Source of the DNA: Candidatus Enterousia sp.
GTDB lineage: Bacteria; Pseudomonadota; Alphaproteobacteria; Rs-D84
Direction: 5' to 3'
DNA: 64,000 nt
Assembly (NCBI GenBank): GCA_045586565.1
Contig: JAZNAO010000006.1
Coordinates: forward strand, 1,457-65,456
The notes beneath the pieces were generated by a model. That model saw only the letters and a list, made by a program, of their open reading frames with translations. It searched no databases and had not been told where the DNA came from. This document shows, piece after piece, positions 22,569 to 63,976 of this stretch (its first letter is position 1; every line of letters starts with the position of its first letter). The position numbers and the translations under genes are program-made.

Positions 22569-22652
22569 CCGCGATAAATAAAAGTTTAGTCTTGCATAAC
22601 ATTTTACAAGAATCTGTGATTCTTGTCATTGCGCGCGCAGCGTGGCAATCCA
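22569..22652 (-). repeat. Dispersed palindromic repeat arm (copy R1)
   Basis: Its reverse complement aligns almost base-for-base with 53191-53283 (CTGGATTGCCACG...ATGACAAGAATCACAGATTCTTGTAAAA...AAACTTTTATTTATCGCGG). Confidence 0.8.
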
Positions 22653-33993: not shown

Positions 33994-34059
33994 TGCGCGG
34001 TAATGACAAGAATTAAAAATTCTTGTAAAATGTTATGCAGATTTAAACTTTTATTTAAG
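33994..34059 (+). repeat. Dispersed palindromic repeat arm (copy F3), inverted relative to R2
   Basis: ...GGTAATGACAAGAATTAAAAATTCTTGTAAAATGTTATGCAGATTTAAACTTTTATTTAAG. It runs directly into the -35 box of the downstream promoter. Confidence 0.7.
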
Positions 34060-34061
34060 TA

Positions 34062-34090
34062 TTGATTCAACTTTTCAAAAATGATAAAAT
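34062..34090 (+). promoter_or_regulatory. Sigma70-type promoter of Cys-rich gene A
   Basis: TTGATT, a 17-nt spacer, then TAAAAT. The same geometry and -10 box recur at 53299 and 55128. Confidence 0.6.
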
Positions 34091-34358
34091 ACATTTGTCG
34101 GTGGGATTTTTCACCGATGGGGTGTGGAAACCCGTTATCTAAGCGTCTATGCACGATTGCATAACGCGCCAATGGCGTGTTTTTTGTGCAGTGTATGGAT
34201 GAAAATTTTTTTCTCCTGATCTTATGTGGTCAGGAGGGCTGCGAATATATTGAATAAGCACACAATTCTTAGATATTGTTTCCAACCTCCTGGCCACCTA
34301 TCTTTTATGGTGGTTTTTGTTTAATTTGCGTATGCAGAACGAAAGGGAGGAAAGTAAT
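34091..34358 (+). promoter_or_regulatory. Conserved structured leader (attenuator-like), copy A
   Basis: Hairpins at 34098-34117 and 34120-34133, and hairpin plus T-run at 34164-34185. Alternative segments: S1 34213-34221, S2 34226-34238, S3 34286-34298, S4 plus T5 34309-34318. Conserved in copies B and C. Confidence 0.6.
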
Positions 34359-35102
34359 ATGCAAAAATTTTTAAAACTAACCGGCGTATCAGTTTTGGCA
34401 ATCGTTGCCGCAACGGGCGCCAATGCCGCGGGATACACCTGTGAAGAATTGATTGAATACACAGCATGTAATGATGGGTGGTATTTAAACGATGGTGATT
34501 GTATAGAAAGCACAACATGTCCATCGGGCAGTTATTTACGTCCGTTTTGTTCAGTGAGCGATTGTGGTGTGAGTTATGATTCTGAGACCGAAGAATATAC
34601 TTGTTGTGATGGTGATTATGTTGCAAACCTGGAATGCATACAATGCCCATCTGTTGGTCTGACTGACAAAGACGGCAAAGTGGTGTCGGTTAAATCACAG
34701 CCTGGCTCAATGGGTGTTGGTTCGTGCTATATTGACCCGAATGCATATTTCAAGGATAGCACGGGGACATATCATTATAAGTCCAATTGTTCTGTGCGTT
34801 TCTGGGAAACATCCCCAGACACAGAAGAAGAATGTACCAGTCTTGGTTTTGAATGGGTATATACAAGTGGTGAATCAGATTCTTATTATGTTTGTGCGTT
34901 GAACATGCGGATTAGTGAACAGTTGGGTTTAATAAAGACAGAAGAAGAATGTAACGCGGCAGCTGAAAAAATATATGGCTTGGTATGGAAAGATGAAGGA
35001 GATTATTATTATTCCAGATGCGAAACCATAAACTACGAAGAGAGTTACTTTATTTTTAGGGATGAATGGTATGTTTTTGGTGATCCTATTTCTCACTCCT
35101 AA
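34359..35102 (+). CDS. Secreted Cys-rich protein, family member A (247 aa)
   Basis: RBS GGGAGGAAAG and signal peptide ...ATGANA|AGYTCEELIEYTAC. Shares the N-terminal module and the CP..GLTDKDG...SC.ID...F.D..G.Y.YK..C module with the protein at 55429. Confidence 0.75.
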   Translation: MQKFLKLTGVSVLAIVAATGANAAGYTCEELIEYTACNDGWYLNDGDCIESTTCPSGSYLRPFCSVSDCGVSYDSETEEYTCCDGDYVANLECIQCPSVGLTDKDGKVVSVKSQPGSMGVGSCYIDPNAYFKDSTGTYHYKSNCSVRFWETSPDTEEECTSLGFEWVYTSGESDSYYVCALNMRISEQLGLIKTEEECNAAAEKIYGLVWKDEGDYYYSRCETINYEESYFIFRDEWYVFGDPISHS

Positions 35103-53190: not shown

Positions 53191-53283
53191 CTGGATTGCC
53201 ACGTTCGTTTCACTCCCTCGCGATGACAAGAATCACAGATTCTTGTAAAAATAGTTGTATAACTAAACTTTTATTTATCGCGG
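53191..53283 (+). repeat. Dispersed palindromic repeat arm (copy F1, solo)
   Basis: CTGGATTGCCACGTTCGTTTCACTCCCTCGCGATGACAAGAATCACAGATTCTTGTAAAA...AAACTTTTATTTATCGCGG. Near-identical in reverse complement at 22569-22652. Confidence 0.8.
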
Positions 53284-53298
53284 TATTCTATTTACCTG

Positions 53299-53327
53299 TT
53301 GACCTAAAATTTTAATATTGATAAAAT
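53299..53327 (+). promoter_or_regulatory. Sigma70-type promoter of Cys-rich gene B
   Basis: TTGACC, a 17-nt spacer, then TAAAAT. Confidence 0.6.
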
Positions 53328-53567
53328 CCTTTTGTCGGTGAGATTTTTCACCGATGGGGTGTAACGACCCGTGCGATAGCGTCTGTGCGATATTTGCGCC
53401 CAGATGAAATTACTCCTGATCTATTCGTGGTCAGGAGGGCTTGTGAATAATGCGTCCGCGCAAAATCAACAGCACAATTCTATCGATTGTCGTTAACCTC
53501 CTGACCACCTGACTTATAAAACGGTGGTTTTTATTTGATAAAACGCAAAGGAAAGGGAGAGTTTTAT
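53328..53567 (+). promoter_or_regulatory. Conserved structured leader, copy B (lacks the internal terminator-like hairpin)
   Basis: H1 and H2 are conserved. Segments: S1 53413-53421, S2 53427-53439, S3 53497-53509, S4 plus T5 53523-53532. Confidence 0.55.
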
Positions 53568-55040
53568 ATGAAAAAGTTTTTTGGTTACACTGTATCAATA
53601 ATGGCAATTTTTGTGGCAAATAATGCATCCGCGGCAGACGGATATACATGTGAAACCAGTCGTGTGTTTACATCGTGTGGTGCAGGTTGGTATTTACAGG
53701 AATCTGTTGCGGGCTCTGGCGAAGGTACGTGTTATGAATGTCCAACCAACTTTAAGAGTGGGGCTGCTGGGATTGTTGGCAAAGATAACTGTGTGGGAAA
53801 TATTGCCGCGGGATATTATTATGACAAGGAAAATGAGACGCGAAAAACATGTCCACAAGGTGCGTCGTATTTTTGCCCAGGGGTATCGAATATTACATAT
53901 GGTAATGCCAGTCGTTCGACAACAACAACCCCGTGTTATGACCCGTCTAATCCAAATGCGATGACGGCAGGATTAAAGAATGTAATTGGTTATAGTAATA
54001 TAACGCGCCTAGAATTGGGTTCATATGGTATTCCAGAAGGTGTTCAGGTAATTACATGGAAACCTGTTGTGGTAAATAGTGGCGGGGCCAGTTCGTATGA
54101 ACATTGTGCCTTTGATTGGACTCAATCAACAAATAATTATAAAATACAGATAATCCCACAAAACAGCCTTACAGGGTCTGGGGTGGCCACTTTAAACATA
54201 ACATCATGCAGCAGTGGACAATTATCGTCGGTTCGAAATGTTAAATTTAATGAGATTGATATTACAACTGGTGGCAGTCCCTTGTTCTCAACAGGATGTG
54301 CCGGCTGTGGCGAAGGTAAGTATTTAAAGTCTGGTGCAACGGAGTGCAGTGCTTGTAACATTCATGATGCGTTGGGCTTGGATACCAGTGTGACAGCAAT
54401 ATGGCAATCTGGTCTGGCTGAAAGCACTGTGGGCTCTTGGGTTTGTCCGTATCGCTTTGAAACGCTTCCTGTTGAAAATGGTGTTGCCACGGGTATATCG
54501 TGCTCGATGACCGATGTCGCCAATGGTACATACAGTTGTCGCTTGTCCCTGGATATAGGACAACTAGGGTGCGATGCGGGTTATATATTGCAAAATGCGG
54601 ACATGACATCCGAAACATTGATTAACTGTGGTGGCCAGGATAATTCGTATGGACAGTCTGTAAATGCTGATACTGATCTTGCAATTGGGCTAGAAATTTT
54701 GACACCGTCAAACTTAAAATGCGTGCCGACACGTATGGGGTGCTATCAGCCAAACGGTCAGGATGAATTTGCAGAAATTACAAACGCTGCGGACTTGATT
54801 ACAGCATTGACTGGCAAGCCTTGTGGCGATGGTAATTATTGTGACAAATCTGCATCTGCGGAACAGACTGCGTGTCCTGCGGTTAAATTGTTCATGCGCG
54901 AAGATGGCAGTGCGGTCAACATGATGTCGGCCGATTATGCAGACGATGCGGCAGACTGTTATGTTCCAGCCAACCCAGATATCTTGTACAAGGACGGAAA
55001 TGGAAACCTGTTCTATCTGGAAAGCAAGTGTGGCTACTAA
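53568..55040 (+). CDS. Secreted Cys-rich protein, family member B (490 aa)
   Basis: RBS AAAGGGAGAG and signal peptide ...NNASA|ADGYTCE. Repeated C-x2-C-P / G-x-Y patterns, and a C-terminal module shared with A and C. Confidence 0.75.
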   Translation: MKKFFGYTVSIMAIFVANNASAADGYTCETSRVFTSCGAGWYLQESVAGSGEGTCYECPTNFKSGAAGIVGKDNCVGNIAAGYYYDKENETRKTCPQGASYFCPGVSNITYGNASRSTTTTPCYDPSNPNAMTAGLKNVIGYSNITRLELGSYGIPEGVQVITWKPVVVNSGGASSYEHCAFDWTQSTNNYKIQIIPQNSLTGSGVATLNITSCSSGQLSSVRNVKFNEIDITTGGSPLFSTGCAGCGEGKYLKSGATECSACNIHDALGLDTSVTAIWQSGLAESTVGSWVCPYRFETLPVENGVATGISCSMTDVANGTYSCRLSLDIGQLGCDAGYILQNADMTSETLINCGGQDNSYGQSVNADTDLAIGLEILTPSNLKCVPTRMGCYQPNGQDEFAEITNAADLITALTGKPCGDGNYCDKSASAEQTACPAVKLFMREDGSAVNMMSADYADDAADCYVPANPDILYKDGNGNLFYLESKCGY

Positions 55041-55067
55041 AAAATCCCCCTTTTGGGGGATTTTTTT
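55040..55067 (+). terminator. Intrinsic terminator after Cys-rich gene B
   Basis: ATCCCCC-TTTT-GGGGGAT hairpin followed by T7. Confidence 0.8.
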
Positions 55068-55127
55068 GAGATACGAGATATGAGACATGTGACAGGAATA
55101 TTTATCAATGTGTCCTTATTTTATTTA

Positions 55128-55156
55128 TTGACGTAAATTCTTAAAACTGATAAAAT
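55128..55156 (+). promoter_or_regulatory. Sigma70-type promoter of Cys-rich gene C
   Basis: TTGACG, a 17-nt spacer, then TAAAAT. Confidence 0.6.
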
Positions 55157-55428
55157 TCTTTTGTCGATGGGATTTTTCATCGATGGGGTGTCAAGACCCG
55201 TTTCATTGGCGTTCATGCACGATTGCATAACACGCCATGTGGCGTATTTTTTATGCGATATGTGTATGGGTGATAAATTACTCCTGACCCGTGGTCAGGA
55301 GGGCTGTGAATATATTGAATAAGCACACAATTCCAATGATTGTCTTGAACCTCCTGGCCACCTTTTGTGAAAAACGGTGGTTTTTTGTTTATTTTGGCAA
55401 ACAAAACAAAGGAAAAGGAGAGTTTGTT
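55157..55428 (+). promoter_or_regulatory. Conserved structured leader, copy C
   Basis: H1 carries a compensatory change (TCGATG/CATCGA). Hairpin plus T-run at 55232-55252. Segments: S1 55281-55289, S2 55291-55303, S3 55350-55362, S4 plus T6 55376-55386. Confidence 0.6.
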
Positions 55429-56376
55429 ATGAAAAAAATTTTATTGAGCGGTGCGTCAATCCTGGCAATTATCGCCACCACAAACGCAAATGCCGCCGGA
55501 TATACCTGTGAAGAATTGATTGAATATACATCGTGTAATACGGGATATTATCTAAATGATGGTGATTGTATCCCGGGCAATACATGCCCTGCCGGGAATT
55601 ATTTACAAGGTGTATGTCCAGATGGGTATGAGTATTCTGACACTTGGAGCGTTGAGAATGGTGCAATTGTTTGGGTTAACAATATTACACAAGCAGAGTG
55701 TGAAAATGAAGGAGACTACTGCACTTGGTACGGCGCAGGGTGCCTTATTACAGATGCGGATCCATTTATGGTGGACGATGGATTTATTTCGGCGACAGGA
55801 TATGAATGCACTGCGTGCGCGGCTGGTTCATATCAACCATCTGCGGGTCAATATGAATGTATAACATGTCCGGCGGGGGCATATTGCGGAACGACCGGAT
55901 TGTCCGCTGTATCTGGCCAGTGTGCCAAGGGGACTTATTCGCATGGTGGTGCTGTATCATGTGCCGCATGTCCGGCGACGGGACTGACCGATAAAGATGG
56001 TGCGGTTGTTGTTGCAACAACGCCGACGGCTGGTGCAACGACGATCTCGTCGTGTGTAATTGATGATACGGTTTATTTCAGGGATACCAAAGGTGTATAT
56101 CGTTACAAACAGGATTGTGTATTGCTTGGTGATATAACAGGCACTAACGCTGCAGAGTGTGAATGGGTGGCAGAAATAACCGGTGAAGATTGGAATATGT
56201 TTAATGATGCTTGTAGTTTTAATACCGAAGGAACAACGATTTTGGCACCAGCGACAGAATCTGAATGCCTTGATTTAGGTGGTGATTGGGACACTTATTT
56301 TGAAGAAGGAAAATGCCATTGTGATGGTTGGGTGTGGTATATTAAAGAAGGAAAATTGATGTGTGGGACAGTATAA
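55429..56376 (+). CDS. Secreted Cys-rich protein, family member C (315 aa)
   Basis: RBS AAAGGAGAG and signal peptide ...TTNANA|AGYTCEELIEYTSC. Contains the ephrin-receptor-like/GCC2-GCC3-like stretch CTACAAGSYQPSAGQYECITCPAGAYC...CAKGTY...CAACP. Confidence 0.78.
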   Translation: MKKILLSGASILAIIATTNANAAGYTCEELIEYTSCNTGYYLNDGDCIPGNTCPAGNYLQGVCPDGYEYSDTWSVENGAIVWVNNITQAECENEGDYCTWYGAGCLITDADPFMVDDGFISATGYECTACAAGSYQPSAGQYECITCPAGAYCGTTGLSAVSGQCAKGTYSHGGAVSCAACPATGLTDKDGAVVVATTPTAGATTISSCVIDDTVYFRDTKGVYRYKQDCVLLGDITGTNAAECEWVAEITGEDWNMFNDACSFNTEGTTILAPATESECLDLGGDWDTYFEEGKCHCDGWVWYIKEGKLMCGTV

Positions 56377-61554: not shown

Positions 61555-61629
61555 TGGCACTCCCAACGGGAATCGAACCCGTGTTACCAGAATGAGAATC
61601 TGATGTCCTAACCGCTAGACGATGGGAGC
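61555..61629 (-). tRNA. tRNA-Glu (anticodon CUC)
   Basis: Manual fold of the reverse complement GCTCCCATCGTCTAGCGGTTAGGACATCAGATTCTCATTCTGGTAACACGGGTTCGATTCCCGTTGGGAGTGCCA. It gives a 7-bp acceptor stem (G1-U72 wobble), a Glu-type D arm, anticodon loop TTCTCAT, T-loop TTCGATT, and an encoded CCA. Confidence 0.85.
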
Positions 61630-61718: not shown

Positions 61719-62465
61719 ATGGCAGGTTCACTACGTCGATTTTTTACAAATGTTATTTGCGGGTGTATAACAAACAAAGACGCGCGCAAGCGTGTGCGTG
61801 TTGTATTGAATTCTGATATGATATCCAATATTCGGTTTATGCGTAAAAATACCGGATTACCTATAAAAAAGATAAAAACATTTATCGGATACCAGGCGCG
61901 CAATTTACTGGTCAGCATAAACGATAAATATATTTTCAAATTTCCGTTGCGACGCAGTGATTCTGATGAACTGGCGTTGCGTGAATCTCGAATTGTATCT
62001 GCATTGGCGCCATTGTCACCGACATATGTTCCGCCGGTTGATATATTTACCCATCGTGGACGTATTGTTCGGCGTTATGAGTTTATTCAAGGAACACAAT
62101 TGCGTAAAATGCCACTGGATATGGCATTGGCAAATATTGATAAATTGGCGCCCCAGGTCGCGCGCTTTATGTTTGAAATTGGTCGTGCTGATCCGGCCGA
62201 AATTCGTGATTTAAAGCCATGTCCGCGTGCGCGTCCGAAATATATGCACGGTTGGTCCCAGGGCGATATCTGTGATAATTTTATTATTGATATGGATACG
62301 ATGAAAATAGTTGCCTTTATTGATTGGGAAGACTGTGCGTTTGGTGATTTTTCACGATTATTTAAGGCCGATAAACGTTCGCCGAACATAGAACTGATGA
62401 ACGCGGTCAAGGTTGAATATGATAAACTGTATAATGCTGCATATCCAAAACGTGGGGGAAAATAA
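61719..62465 (+). CDS. Protein-kinase-like/aminoglycoside-phosphotransferase-family protein, paralogue 1
   Basis: C-terminal HGWSQGDICDNFII...VAFIDWEDCAFGDF resembles the APH/choline-kinase catalytic and metal-binding loops. The N-terminal basic motif is shared with the next gene. Confidence 0.5.
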   Translation: MAGSLRRFFTNVICGCITNKDARKRVRVVLNSDMISNIRFMRKNTGLPIKKIKTFIGYQARNLLVSINDKYIFKFPLRRSDSDELALRESRIVSALAPLSPTYVPPVDIFTHRGRIVRRYEFIQGTQLRKMPLDMALANIDKLAPQVARFMFEIGRADPAEIRDLKPCPRARPKYMHGWSQGDICDNFIIDMDTMKIVAFIDWEDCAFGDFSRLFKADKRSPNIELMNAVKVEYDKLYNAAYPKRGGK

Positions 62466-62468
62466 AAA

Positions 62469-63212
62469 ATGAGTCTGCGACATACACTGGTAAATATCGT
62501 TTGTGGTTTTGTGCCAGGCAAAAAAGCGCGCACGCGTGTTCGTGTGTTTTTAATGTATCCTGTGGCATTTTCATATGTAAAATATGTAAAACAATGGGCG
62601 CGTGAAAATTGTGGTGGGGTGCAAAGTTTATCAATGGCGTTTGGTGTTGGATGTCGCAATCTGGTTGTTGTGTTAAATAAAGAACATGTATTTAAATTTT
62701 TATTGGTTAAACGTGAAAATCCGGCCCTGCGGGAAGAACGTGTTGTAAACGCGTTGCGCCGTGTGTCGCCATTGATATCGCCCAAAATGGAAGTTATAAA
62801 TTGGAACGGGGTTTTGGTGCGTCATTATGATTTTGTGCATGGAAAATTGTTGTGCGATTTTGCGCCGTCTGAAATTTATGCCCACCAAGAAAAAATCGCA
62901 AAACAATTGGCAGAATTTATGTATAAAATTGGTTGTGCCGATCCAGCCGAAATTCGTGATTTGAAACCAGACCCCAATGTGGCTCCAGGATATATGTACG
63001 GTTGGTTTCATAATGATATTGGTAATAACTGTATGTTGGACGATGATATGAATATTGTTGGATTTATCGATTGTGACAAGACGGCATTTTGTGATTTTCG
63101 TACCAGTTTAACATACGCCAATCATCATTGGGATAAACACGGATTTAAGGGGCTGATGGTTCACACATTGTATGAATATTCAAAATTGTACTTTGCACAT
63201 AATAAAAAATAA
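62469..63212 (+). CDS. Protein-kinase-like/aminoglycoside-phosphotransferase-family protein, paralogue 2
   Basis: Collinear with the previous gene (ADPAEIRDLKP identical; FHNDIGNNCML...GFIDCDKTAFCDF). Starts 3 nt after the upstream stop. Confidence 0.5.
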   Translation: MSLRHTLVNIVCGFVPGKKARTRVRVFLMYPVAFSYVKYVKQWARENCGGVQSLSMAFGVGCRNLVVVLNKEHVFKFLLVKRENPALREERVVNALRRVSPLISPKMEVINWNGVLVRHYDFVHGKLLCDFAPSEIYAHQEKIAKQLAEFMYKIGCADPAEIRDLKPDPNVAPGYMYGWFHNDIGNNCMLDDDMNIVGFIDCDKTAFCDFRTSLTYANHHWDKHGFKGLMVHTLYEYSKLYFAHNKK

Positions 63213-63236
63213 ACCGGTATTATACCGGTTTTTTAC
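63208..63236. terminator. Bidirectional terminator
   Basis: A-run, then ACCGGT-ATTAT-ACCGGT hairpin, then T6, between convergent genes. Confidence 0.7.
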
Positions 63237-63976
63237 TTAACTTTTTGTGCCTGCCCCATCCATATTATTTTCTGTTTTGGGTTTTCAAAAATTGCAATTG
63301 GCATGTGGTACAGGTTATATCCAGTACCATTACAAAATTCTTTGGTTAATATGGCGTGTTTCGATGCTGCACGATGTAATTGGTTAATTTTACTTAGTAT
63401 TGCATTATTGCCCTGATGTCGCATTTGCCCATCTTGAAAGTCTTGCCCAGTGACGATTTGGTATATATTGGATATATCACAGTAATCAATTTCACCATTG
63501 TCATATTGTTTGAACCATTGGTATTCGGTGTGGTCCAAAACAGGAACTGCTTTTAAATTCATATCTGCCAATTGAAGCAAGAATTTTTGTGGGTTAATGT
63601 ATTCCAGATTGGCCCGCCGGCCATTAATAGAAATAACTTTTGTTTGCAGGTCATCTGTTTTGATATATTTTGGACGATTTGGGTTATAAAAAGTATTTAA
63701 TGTTTCCAGCGTGCAATCCGGAACTTCCAGAATTGCACTTTTGTCCGCGGGTTTATATGGTACGGATCGCAGATTAATCGTTAATGGGTGTGGTAACTCA
63801 AAATCCACCATGTCATAACTTTGAATTACATGTTGTGGTGTACACGTTGTGTATGTCAACTTATTACCACACTGTGTCAGGAATACACATTCCGCCCATC
63901 GATATTTGTTGCGTTCATATTGTCTTCTGTATGTAATATTCACAGGGACTGCCAACAACTTGTGATTTTGCAACAC
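63233..63976 (-). CDS. Hypothetical protein (247 aa)
   Basis: Long ORF at the window edge. No motif recognised. Confidence 0.4.
   Translation of the reverse strand: MLQNHKLLAVPVNITYRRQYERNKYRWAECVFLTQCGNKLTYTTCTPQHVIQSYDMVDFELPHPLTINLRSVPYKPADKSAILEVPDCTLETLNTFYNPNRPKYIKTDDLQTKVISINGRRANLEYINPQKFLLQLADMNLKAVPVLDHTEYQWFKQYDNGEIDYCDISNIYQIVTGQDFQDGQMRHQGNNAILSKINQLHRAASKHAILTKEFCNGTGYNLYHMPIAIFENPKQKIIWMGQAQKVK

Follow-up and report, generated by a model that had tools for sequence, protein, structure and literature searches.

The locus and its three leader copies

Within the 64,000-nucleotide stretch of Candidatus Enterousia DNA analysed in this study (the window, to which all coordinates refer), the region 55157-55428 follows the upstream gene's terminator (55045-55066) and precedes the ATG (55429) of an open reading frame (ORF; 55429-56376) for a 315-residue, Cys-rich protein with a signal peptide and an Ephrin_rec_like domain. 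A sequence-only reading had flagged these roughly 270 bases as a leader whose RNA structure is under selection, and the covariation across homologues described below bears this out for the + strand. The stretch is one of three leader copies in the window (copy C), the other two (A and B) having been recognized by repeat finding and alignment, and it is interpreted here as a probable riboswitch-like attenuator of transcription. Its parts, and those of its two relatives, are as follows.

55128-55156, + strand: promoter of copy C, TTGACG, 17 nt, TG-n-TAAAAT (extended -10), from a consensus scan
55163-55184, + strand: H1, the 5'-terminal 9-bp hairpin, arms GTCGATGGG (55163-55171) and TTCATCGAT (55176-55184)
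55185-55199, + strand: switch segment "a", with GGGGU (55185-55189) as P2a 5' strand, G55190 as bulge and UCAAGAC (55191-55197) as P2b 5' strand
55203-55209, + strand: P3 5' strand UCAUUGG, partner CCAAUGA at 55333-55339
55232-55252, + strand: T1, internal terminator-like hairpin ACGCC-AUGU-GGCGU with U-run, within a variable insert (~55210-55275)
55281-55302, + strand: P4 hairpin, seg1 CUCCUGACC (55281-55289) and seg2 GGUCAGGAGG (55293-55302)
55304-55326, + strand: P5, a 3-bp stem closing the conserved 15-nt loop GAAUAUAUUGAAUAA (55308-55322)
55327-55343, + strand: P6, alternative hairpin ACAAU/AUUGU, arms 55327-55331 and 55339-55343, with the P3 3' strand CCAAUGA (55333-55339) as its loop
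55342-55359, + strand: switch segment "h/seg3", with GUCUUGA (55342-55348) as P2b 3' strand, ACCUC (55349-55353) as P2a 3' strand and CCUCCUGGCC at 55350-55359
55357-55386, + strand: final intrinsic terminator T, GCCACC...GGUGGU then UUUUU, its 5' arm overlapping seg3 by 3 nt
55415-55431, + strand: Shine-Dalgarno (SD) sequence AAGGAGA and ATG (55429) of the putatively regulated gene
34054-34358, + strand: leader copy A (promoter 34062-34090; RNA 34096-34335; T1 34164-34185; P5 loop 34243-34257; seg3 34286-34295; gene ATG 34359)
53291-53567, + strand: leader copy B (promoter 53299-53327; RNA 53333-53549; hairpin inserted in the P5 loop 53445-53468; seg3 53497-53506; gene ATG 53568)

Homologues and overall covariation

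The protein downstream of copy C is one of a large family of paralogues in uncultured gut Alphaproteobacteria, and the locus of a 48%-identical homologue (L002) carries a homologous leader that retains every helix while differing in most of the helix sequences. Further leaders were collected, from one genome per species, with the scan pattern GGAGG-N4-7-GAATATATTGAATAA, which fixes the end of P4 and the P5 loop only and leaves H1, P2, P3 and the terminator free. More than 116 loci were obtained among the matches listed, and all of these except one chance match (L011, Kangiellaceae) come from gut, rumen or termite metagenome-assembled genomes (MAGs) of Alphaproteobacteria, many of them named Candidatus Enterousia (order Rs-D84). 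The covariance model R1 makes 142 matches in ~0.95 Mb of fetched loci from ~70 MAGs, including copies without the anchor motif, and several MAGs hold at least 4-5 leader copies. Applied to the window, the model returns the three copies only (C, 146 bits; A, 140.5; B, 121.8).

Two alignments were evaluated against shuffled controls. In a MAFFT alignment of 87 leaders to which no structure had been fitted (A2), the closed structure detailed below is 87.9% paired vs 71.5% in shuffles, with a covariation score of 0.462 vs 0.175 that is reached by 0 of 500 shuffles and falls to at most 0.109 with slid partners. In the covariance-model alignment of 121 sequences (A3), 90.8% of cells are paired vs 67.8%, and the score is 0.587 vs 0.180 (again 0/500; at most 0.098 with slid partners). 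Given A2 without any input structure, RNAalifold finds H1, the long-range P2, P4, P5 and T, 26 of the 33 pairs being compensatory. The signal belongs to the + strand, which is 90.8% paired compared to 84.4% for the opposite strand, 8% of the cells being G-U. A "best complement" test (G-U allowed, 110 nt) failed to separate own from foreign partners and was replaced by anchored parsing and column counts.

A closed fold held by long-range pairing

The minimum free energy (MFE) folds of A, B and C share one architecture (z-scores -5.5, -4.0 and -5.3). At its centre is P2, a 12-bp long-range helix in which GGGGU-G-NNNNNNN pairs with NNNNNNN-ACCUC ~150 nt downstream, just before the final terminator. 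The P2b strands of the three copies read as follows.

Copy A: UGGAAAC / GUUUCCA
Copy B: UAACGAC / GUCGUUA
Copy C: UCAAGAC / GUCUUGA

Four positions vary among these strands and every one is compensated, which is far stronger evidence than the single change in H1. The sequence-only reading had placed a local stem H2 here, with a loop free to drift. Its description holds in that GGGGT...ACCC is invariant across the copies and the six bases inside differ (GTGGAA in A, GTAACG in B, GTCAAG in C); these bases, however, are not a drifting loop but covary perfectly with 7 nt some 150 nt away. Across A3, P2b is 98.8% paired, with 7/7 pairs changed on both sides, up to four Watson-Crick pair types per position, and a 3' strand located just 5' of AACCUCC. 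The adjoining P2a (GGGGU:ACCUC) is 86.7% paired, 4/5 pairs having changed on both sides.

H1 is a genuine helix. Copy A (34097-34118) and copy B (53334-53355) read GTCGGTG(G/A)G/TTCACCGAT here, and the double change reported for copy C is indeed one of pairing partners, G>A at 55167 and C>T at 55180, giving an A-U pair specific to that copy. One double change among three paralogues is weak evidence taken alone; the doubt it left is removed by the wider sample of 121 homologues, in which 93.4% of H1 cells are paired and 8/8 modelled pairs have changed on both sides.

The remaining helices of the closed fold carry similar signal. P3 is 83% paired in A3, with 6/6 modelled pairs changed on both sides; the 53% obtained for it in the MAFFT alignment reflects misalignment. 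P4 is 95% paired (6/8 pairs changed on both sides; covarying variants UGAC/GUCA, AACC/GGUU and AGCC/GGCU). The P5 stem consists of three good pairs, 98–99% each and all covarying, the second as UA, GC or CG. Variants of the P5 loop retain GAAUA-N3-4-(G)AAUAA, some of them with an inserted hairpin as in copy B. The terminator T forms in the MFE folds, is 94-95% paired and has 4-5 of its 6 pairs covarying. Of the earlier structural model, H1 and the terminator-like hairpins thus remain, whereas the long-range P2/P3, P4, P5, P6 and the antiterminator had been missed.

The motif GGAAUA recurs at the 5' side of the insert in the leaders L010, L016, L019, L026, L033, L042, L049 and L051 (A2 columns ~68-80). 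Together with the two copies of the P5 loop, GAAUA is then present three times and may serve as a repeated site for protein binding.

An alternative conformer with its own covariation

H2, P6 and an antiterminator are incompatible with P2, P3, P4 and T, yet each of them carries signal. H2 (in copy C, GGGU with ACCC at 55196-55199) has a mixed record: it never formed in the MFE folds of A, B and C and was not predicted in the RNAalifold consensus of A2, but it contains one informative covarying pair. This is its second pair (GC in 74 sequences, GU in 17, AU in 15). Sequences with A in place of the second G have U as the local partner in 15/18 cases, compared to 17/93 with G (Fisher p = 2e-7, not corrected for phylogeny), and this local change is informative because the distal partner of the same base is an invariant U. 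H2 is best read as part of an alternative conformer.

P6 is 88-91% paired, the middle pair being AU and UA equally often (52 sequences each); outside the window the hairpin is CUAUA/UAUAG or CUGU/ACAG. Its 3' arm overlaps the first P2b pairs and its loop is the P3 3' strand. Because it overlaps both helices, P6 is mutually exclusive with P3 and P2b, or a rival for their end pairs.

The antiterminator is formed by the 3' arm of P4 (seg2, GGUCAGGAGG), which is complementary to seg3 (CCUCCUGRCC) over 9-11 contiguous bp in 108/113 leaders. At least five covarying seg2:seg3 classes occur (UGACC/GGUCA, AACC/GGUU, AGCC/GGCU, UGCC/GGCA and CGAC/GUCG), and the pairing is often more complete than P4 itself. 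Column counts are confounded here by a 1-nt length difference between subtypes, and the anchored count of contiguous pairs was used instead. The CCUC of seg3 is also part of P2a, and the last 3 nt of seg3 belong to the 5' arm of T as well. For a transcript ending just after seg3, the energy gap between the closed and antiterminator folds amounts to 4.9 kcal/mol in C, 5.3 in A and 2.5 in B. A complete terminator widens it to 9-11.5 kcal/mol, with the closed fold as the ground state. When the antiterminator is forced, P6 appears in A and C; H2 emerges with its four pairs in A and B, and C shows a displaced local pairing of H2 type instead.

Promoters, downstream genes and leader subtypes

The promoters of A, B and C conform to TTGAC(N)-17-TGATAAAAT. 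Among 138 homologue units, 122 have at least 5/6 matches to TATAAT, and in 103 the box ends 5-6 nt before H1; with the -10 box so placed in most units, the transcript is taken to start at H1. A same-strand SD sequence and ORF begin -4 to +28 nt from the model end in 105/141 units, that is, 25-50 nt after the terminator, which is so near that no room is left for a second promoter. The leader hence occupies the 5' untranslated region between promoter and start codon, ends in an intrinsic terminator and contains a conserved antiterminator that overlaps the 5' arm of T.

The products encoded downstream comprise ~70 signal-peptide proteins (Pfam Flg_new, OMP_b-brl, Ephrin_rec_like, Opacity, DUF285, CBM_14) and ~30 small proteins, many with an XRE-type helix-turn-helix. 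In the window, the genes 3' of A, B and C (34359-35102, 53568-55040 and 55429-56376) are paralogues that encode secreted Cys-rich proteins, in all three of which the signal peptide is followed by an N-terminal (D)GYTCE motif. In MAGs of gut Alphaproteobacteria their family is represented by numerous paralogues per genome; one MAG alone has more than 15 (IKB10_ genes). Tandem leader units are found at L088:2323-3023 (minus strand; three units), L111:3592-3991, L043:388-817 and L062:2767-3139, each unit with its own promoter and terminator and an ORF after the last only; this suggests serial checkpoints or stand-alone RNA products.

Two leader types can be distinguished. The "CCUCCUG" type, to which the three window copies belong (n = 49; median 230 nt), precedes 38 signal-peptide proteins, 4 small proteins without signal peptide and 1 other; the "CCUCCAA" type (n = 63; median 189 nt) precedes 29 signal-peptide proteins and 21 small regulators. 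T1 occurs in 32/49 leaders of the former and 0/63 of the latter. The hairpin had been described before as changing in sequence and not in shape, from ACGCGCC-AAT-GGCGTGT plus U-run in A (34164-34185) to ACGCC-ATGT-GGCGT plus U-run in C (55232-55252). That comparison is accurate, and it extends to the homologues, where 34 insert hairpins were detected, with 25 distinct stems. What does not hold is the first terminator as a feature shared by the leaders, the insert being confined to one subtype: T1 is a lineage-specific module outside the family core. Copy B is without it (~33 nt are absent, a point that the sequence-only reading had passed over) and has a small hairpin inserted mid P5 loop. The same variant is present in L014:7093-7293, and we therefore regard copy B as a functional-looking variant rather than a decayed copy.

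Relation to described RNA families

Screening of the whole window with Rfam 15 (4227 covariance models) at gathering thresholds returned tRNA only. On 55050-55480 at E <= 10, matches were at chance level, the best of them lying on the wrong strand with 23.6 bits (cut-off 54); on 15 homologous loci holding at least 20 leaders, tRNAs alone were found. No description was found in the literature on the loop sequence, Enterousia, Rs-D84 and microbiome structured-RNA catalogues, as far as the 200 of 408 supplementary files of PMC8040213 that were covered extend, and an unnamed entry for the leader among the thousands of candidates in that catalogue is possible. Attenuating or riboswitch-like leaders are a well-known kind of element; this family of them appears new.

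Other features of the window

A weak R1 match at 63210-63302 (14.5 bits, E = 0.018), directly after ORF 62469-63212, is probably just a terminator hairpin. That ORF and its tandem paralogue 61719-62465 (repeat D3, 71% identity over 136 nt) adjoin a tRNA gene (61558-61629, - strand). Elsewhere, a tRNA gene is placed 100-250 nt upstream of the leader on the opposite strand at L007:595-668, L066:1424-1494 and L083:3175-3364 and, by inspection, in L098 and L104.

The perfect palindrome ACAAGAAT-N5-ATTCTTGT occurs three times in the window (22606-22626, 34006-34026 and 53226-53246; expected 0.68 even with 3 mismatches). Two of the copies lie ~35 nt upstream of the -35 boxes of leaders A and B, and none is found upstream of C. 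The palindrome is absent from 119 fetched loci of other genomes and is for this reason placed outside the leader family; it could be an operator or a genome-specific element like a repetitive extragenic palindrome (REP). The coding sequence GAATTGATTGAATA(C/T), specifying EELIEY at 34446-34460 and 55513-55527, ~90 nt into genes A and C, agrees with the P5 loop GAATATATTGAATAA on the same strand at 12/15 bases, probably by chance.

Discussion

Based on the covariation and mutual exclusivity of its helices, together with the promoter, the terminator and the arrangement of the downstream gene, the region is understood as the mRNA 5' leader of a new structured cis-regulatory RNA family in Rs-D84 / Candidatus Enterousia, working as a riboswitch-like terminator/antiterminator attenuator, a reading to which we assign a probability of about 75%. 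In the mechanism envisaged, each unit would be transcribed from a sigma-70-type promoter, with the RNA extending from H1 to the intrinsic terminator 25-50 nt before the SD sequence. In the closed fold, P2a and P2b would join the segment after H1 to that before the terminator and, extended by P3, enclose P4 and P5 (and, in one subtype, T1); with the CCUCC of seg3 thus sequestered, T would form and transcription would stop. In the open fold, the 5' segment would fold locally as H2, P6 would form, and seg3 would pair with the P4 3' arm over 9-11 bp, so that the antiterminator takes 3 nt of the T 5' arm and polymerase reads through. Whether the antiterminator can capture seg3 would accordingly depend on the formation of P2. 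Recognition by a small ligand or an RNA-binding protein would likely take place at the invariant P5 loop and the junction nucleotides, and the conserved unpaired candidates are the P5 loop itself (GAAUA-N4-GAAUA-A), the GG after P4, C-C-AU before P3' and ACC(C/U) after P2b.

Several points weigh against this interpretation. Regulation as such and the direction of the switch, with the two folds as on and off states of transcription, are both inferred. The advantage of the closed fold once T is complete (9-11.5 kcal/mol) means that read-through would need a kinetic or factor-dependent route. The support for H2 comes mainly from its one covarying pair, uncorrected for phylogeny, and seg1 and seg3 could resemble each other because both bind the same partner, not because they pair alternatively with seg2. 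The P5 loop was the search anchor, so its seeming invariance is partly an artefact of selection, and in 15 model-only matches the loop does vary. Lastly, some tandem units have no ORF between them.

The last of these observations leads to the main rival, a stand-alone small RNA (sRNA) gene in which the promoter-to-terminator unit of ~190-250 nt acts in trans or sequesters a protein, and downstream expression is incidental. Such a function would suit the own promoter and strong terminator of every unit, the terminated form as the MFE structure, the units without intervening ORF in L088 (three), L111, L043 and L062, and the repetition of GAAUA in the P5 loop and of GGAAUA in many inserts, which could be protein-binding repeats. 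What makes it unlikely is the close same-strand SD sequence and ORF in 105/141 units without a promoter-sized gap, so that the genes can be transcribed only by read-through, and also the conserved, covarying antiterminator overlapping the terminator. Moreover, no trans site complementary to the P5 loop was found in the window, the near matches being the loop itself on the opposite strand and chance similarities. The sRNA and attenuator roles could coexist. An arrangement of local elements only (H1, H2 with a drifting loop and two static terminators, with neither long-range structure nor switch), as originally drawn, draws on hairpins that are real and on an H2 stem that is invariant in A, B and C and has a covarying pair. 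It has become very improbable given that the supposed loop covaries with the distal segment at all 7 positions (98.8% paired), that H2 is missing from the MFE folds and the RNAalifold consensus, that P3, P4, P5, P6 and the antiterminator all covary, and that T1 is absent from copy B and from all 63 leaders of the "AA" type.

Attenuation mediated by the ribosome would have a leader peptide that starts at a UUG or AUU of the P5 loop, behind the SD-like GGAGG of seg2, and is translated across seg3 and T. Seg2 does present a perfect SD-like AGGAGG 5-13 nt before an AUA, AUU or UUG of the loop, and in copy C the UUG frame continues into the main ORF. The distance from the loop to the main ATG, however, shows no preferred phase (33/32/30); in every sequence two frames are closed within the loop, while the third stops variably (median 14 codons); indels between copies are not multiples of 3; and substitutions compensate base pairs. 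A leader-peptide attenuator was rejected on the finding that neither frame nor phase nor stop position is conserved, and we consider it hardly credible. Equally far-fetched appears a repeat at the level of DNA (mobile promoter cassette, REP-like element or recombination site) whose palindromes mimic helices. Many copies per small genome, some as tandem or divergent pairs, and the separate perfect palindrome near copies A and B would be in line with it. Against this, G-U pairs are common at fixed positions, the + strand gives the better structure, the helices extend over 150 nt and contain bulges, units keep a constant orientation relative to promoter, terminator and ORF, and no terminal repeats or transposase genes were seen.

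As an attenuating leader, the RNA shows clear analogies to terminator/antiterminator riboswitches such as the c-di-GMP-I class (GEMM-I). Common to both are a multi-helix junction in the 5' leader closed by a long-range helix, a closing-helix 3' strand shared with the antiterminator that competes with an intrinsic terminator, covariation for both conformers, and many copies per genome including tandem units; GEMM-I, too, precedes diverse secreted, surface and regulatory genes instead of one metabolic pathway. The leader differs in lacking Rfam 15 similarity and a known ligand, in having 7 bp of free sequence in the closing helix, in the terminator-like hairpin inside the "aptamer" of one subtype and in a 5' strand with a local alternative hairpin of its own. 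Leaders controlled by proteins (TRAP-trp, PyrR-pyr, BglG/LicT RAT and ANTAR systems) likewise involve mutually exclusive terminator and antiterminator helices and multi-gene regulons, and the short repeats (GAAUA twice in the P5 loop, sometimes a third time in the insert) are possible protein sites. The present RNA is much larger (190-260 nt) and more structured, shows no 11 (G/U)AG triplets, PyrR binding loop, RAT hairpin or ANTAR hexaloop pair, and has no cognate RNA-binding protein identified.

T-box leaders resemble it in length (200-300 nt), in their covarying multi-helix terminator/antiterminator design and in a hypervariable "address" segment. Here, by contrast, no Stem I specifier loop, T-box sequence or bulge is evident by inspection and there is no RF00230 match; the variable 7 nt pair within the same RNA and not with a tRNA anticodon, and the downstream genes are not those of aminoacyl-tRNA synthetases or amino-acid metabolism. 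Processive antitermination RNAs (HK022 put, Bacillus EAR) are comparable as structured RNAs near the 5' end of a unit with more than one terminator (T1 and T), without sequence similarity to the leader. The location of T1 inside the structure and the overlap of T with a specific antiterminator strand set the leader apart from them and point to terminator-specific rather than processive control. As an instance of its kind, the leader is a rare case of covariation signal in both mutually exclusive conformers of a switch, and it also combines a nested terminator with a closing helix of free sequence that is unusually long.

The regulated genes give no metabolic clue and as a set resemble those of second-messenger riboswitches. 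One may tentatively propose, with the odds rather against it, a new riboswitch, or a protein- or second-messenger-responsive leader class, with the P2-P3-P4-P5 junction and the GAAUAUAUUGAAUAA loop as aptamer, which would coordinate the surface and secreted proteome together with XRE regulators. To our knowledge, gene regulation in Rs-D84-type organisms is essentially undescribed. Rs-D84 / Candidatus Enterousia are uncultured gut bacteria with genomes <1 Mb and neither tricarboxylic acid cycle nor respiratory chain (PMC12306168). A leader of 190-260 nt, found three times in a 64-kb window and placed before genes for signal-peptide, Cys-rich and surface proteins and XRE regulators, suggests one RNA-based regulon for the cell surface or host interface. 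The effector, if found, would reveal a signal important to these symbionts. If the proposal of a new effector-responsive class is true, the leaders would constitute a master RNA regulon that takes the place of lost protein regulators in host-associated Alphaproteobacteria of <1 Mb genome size.

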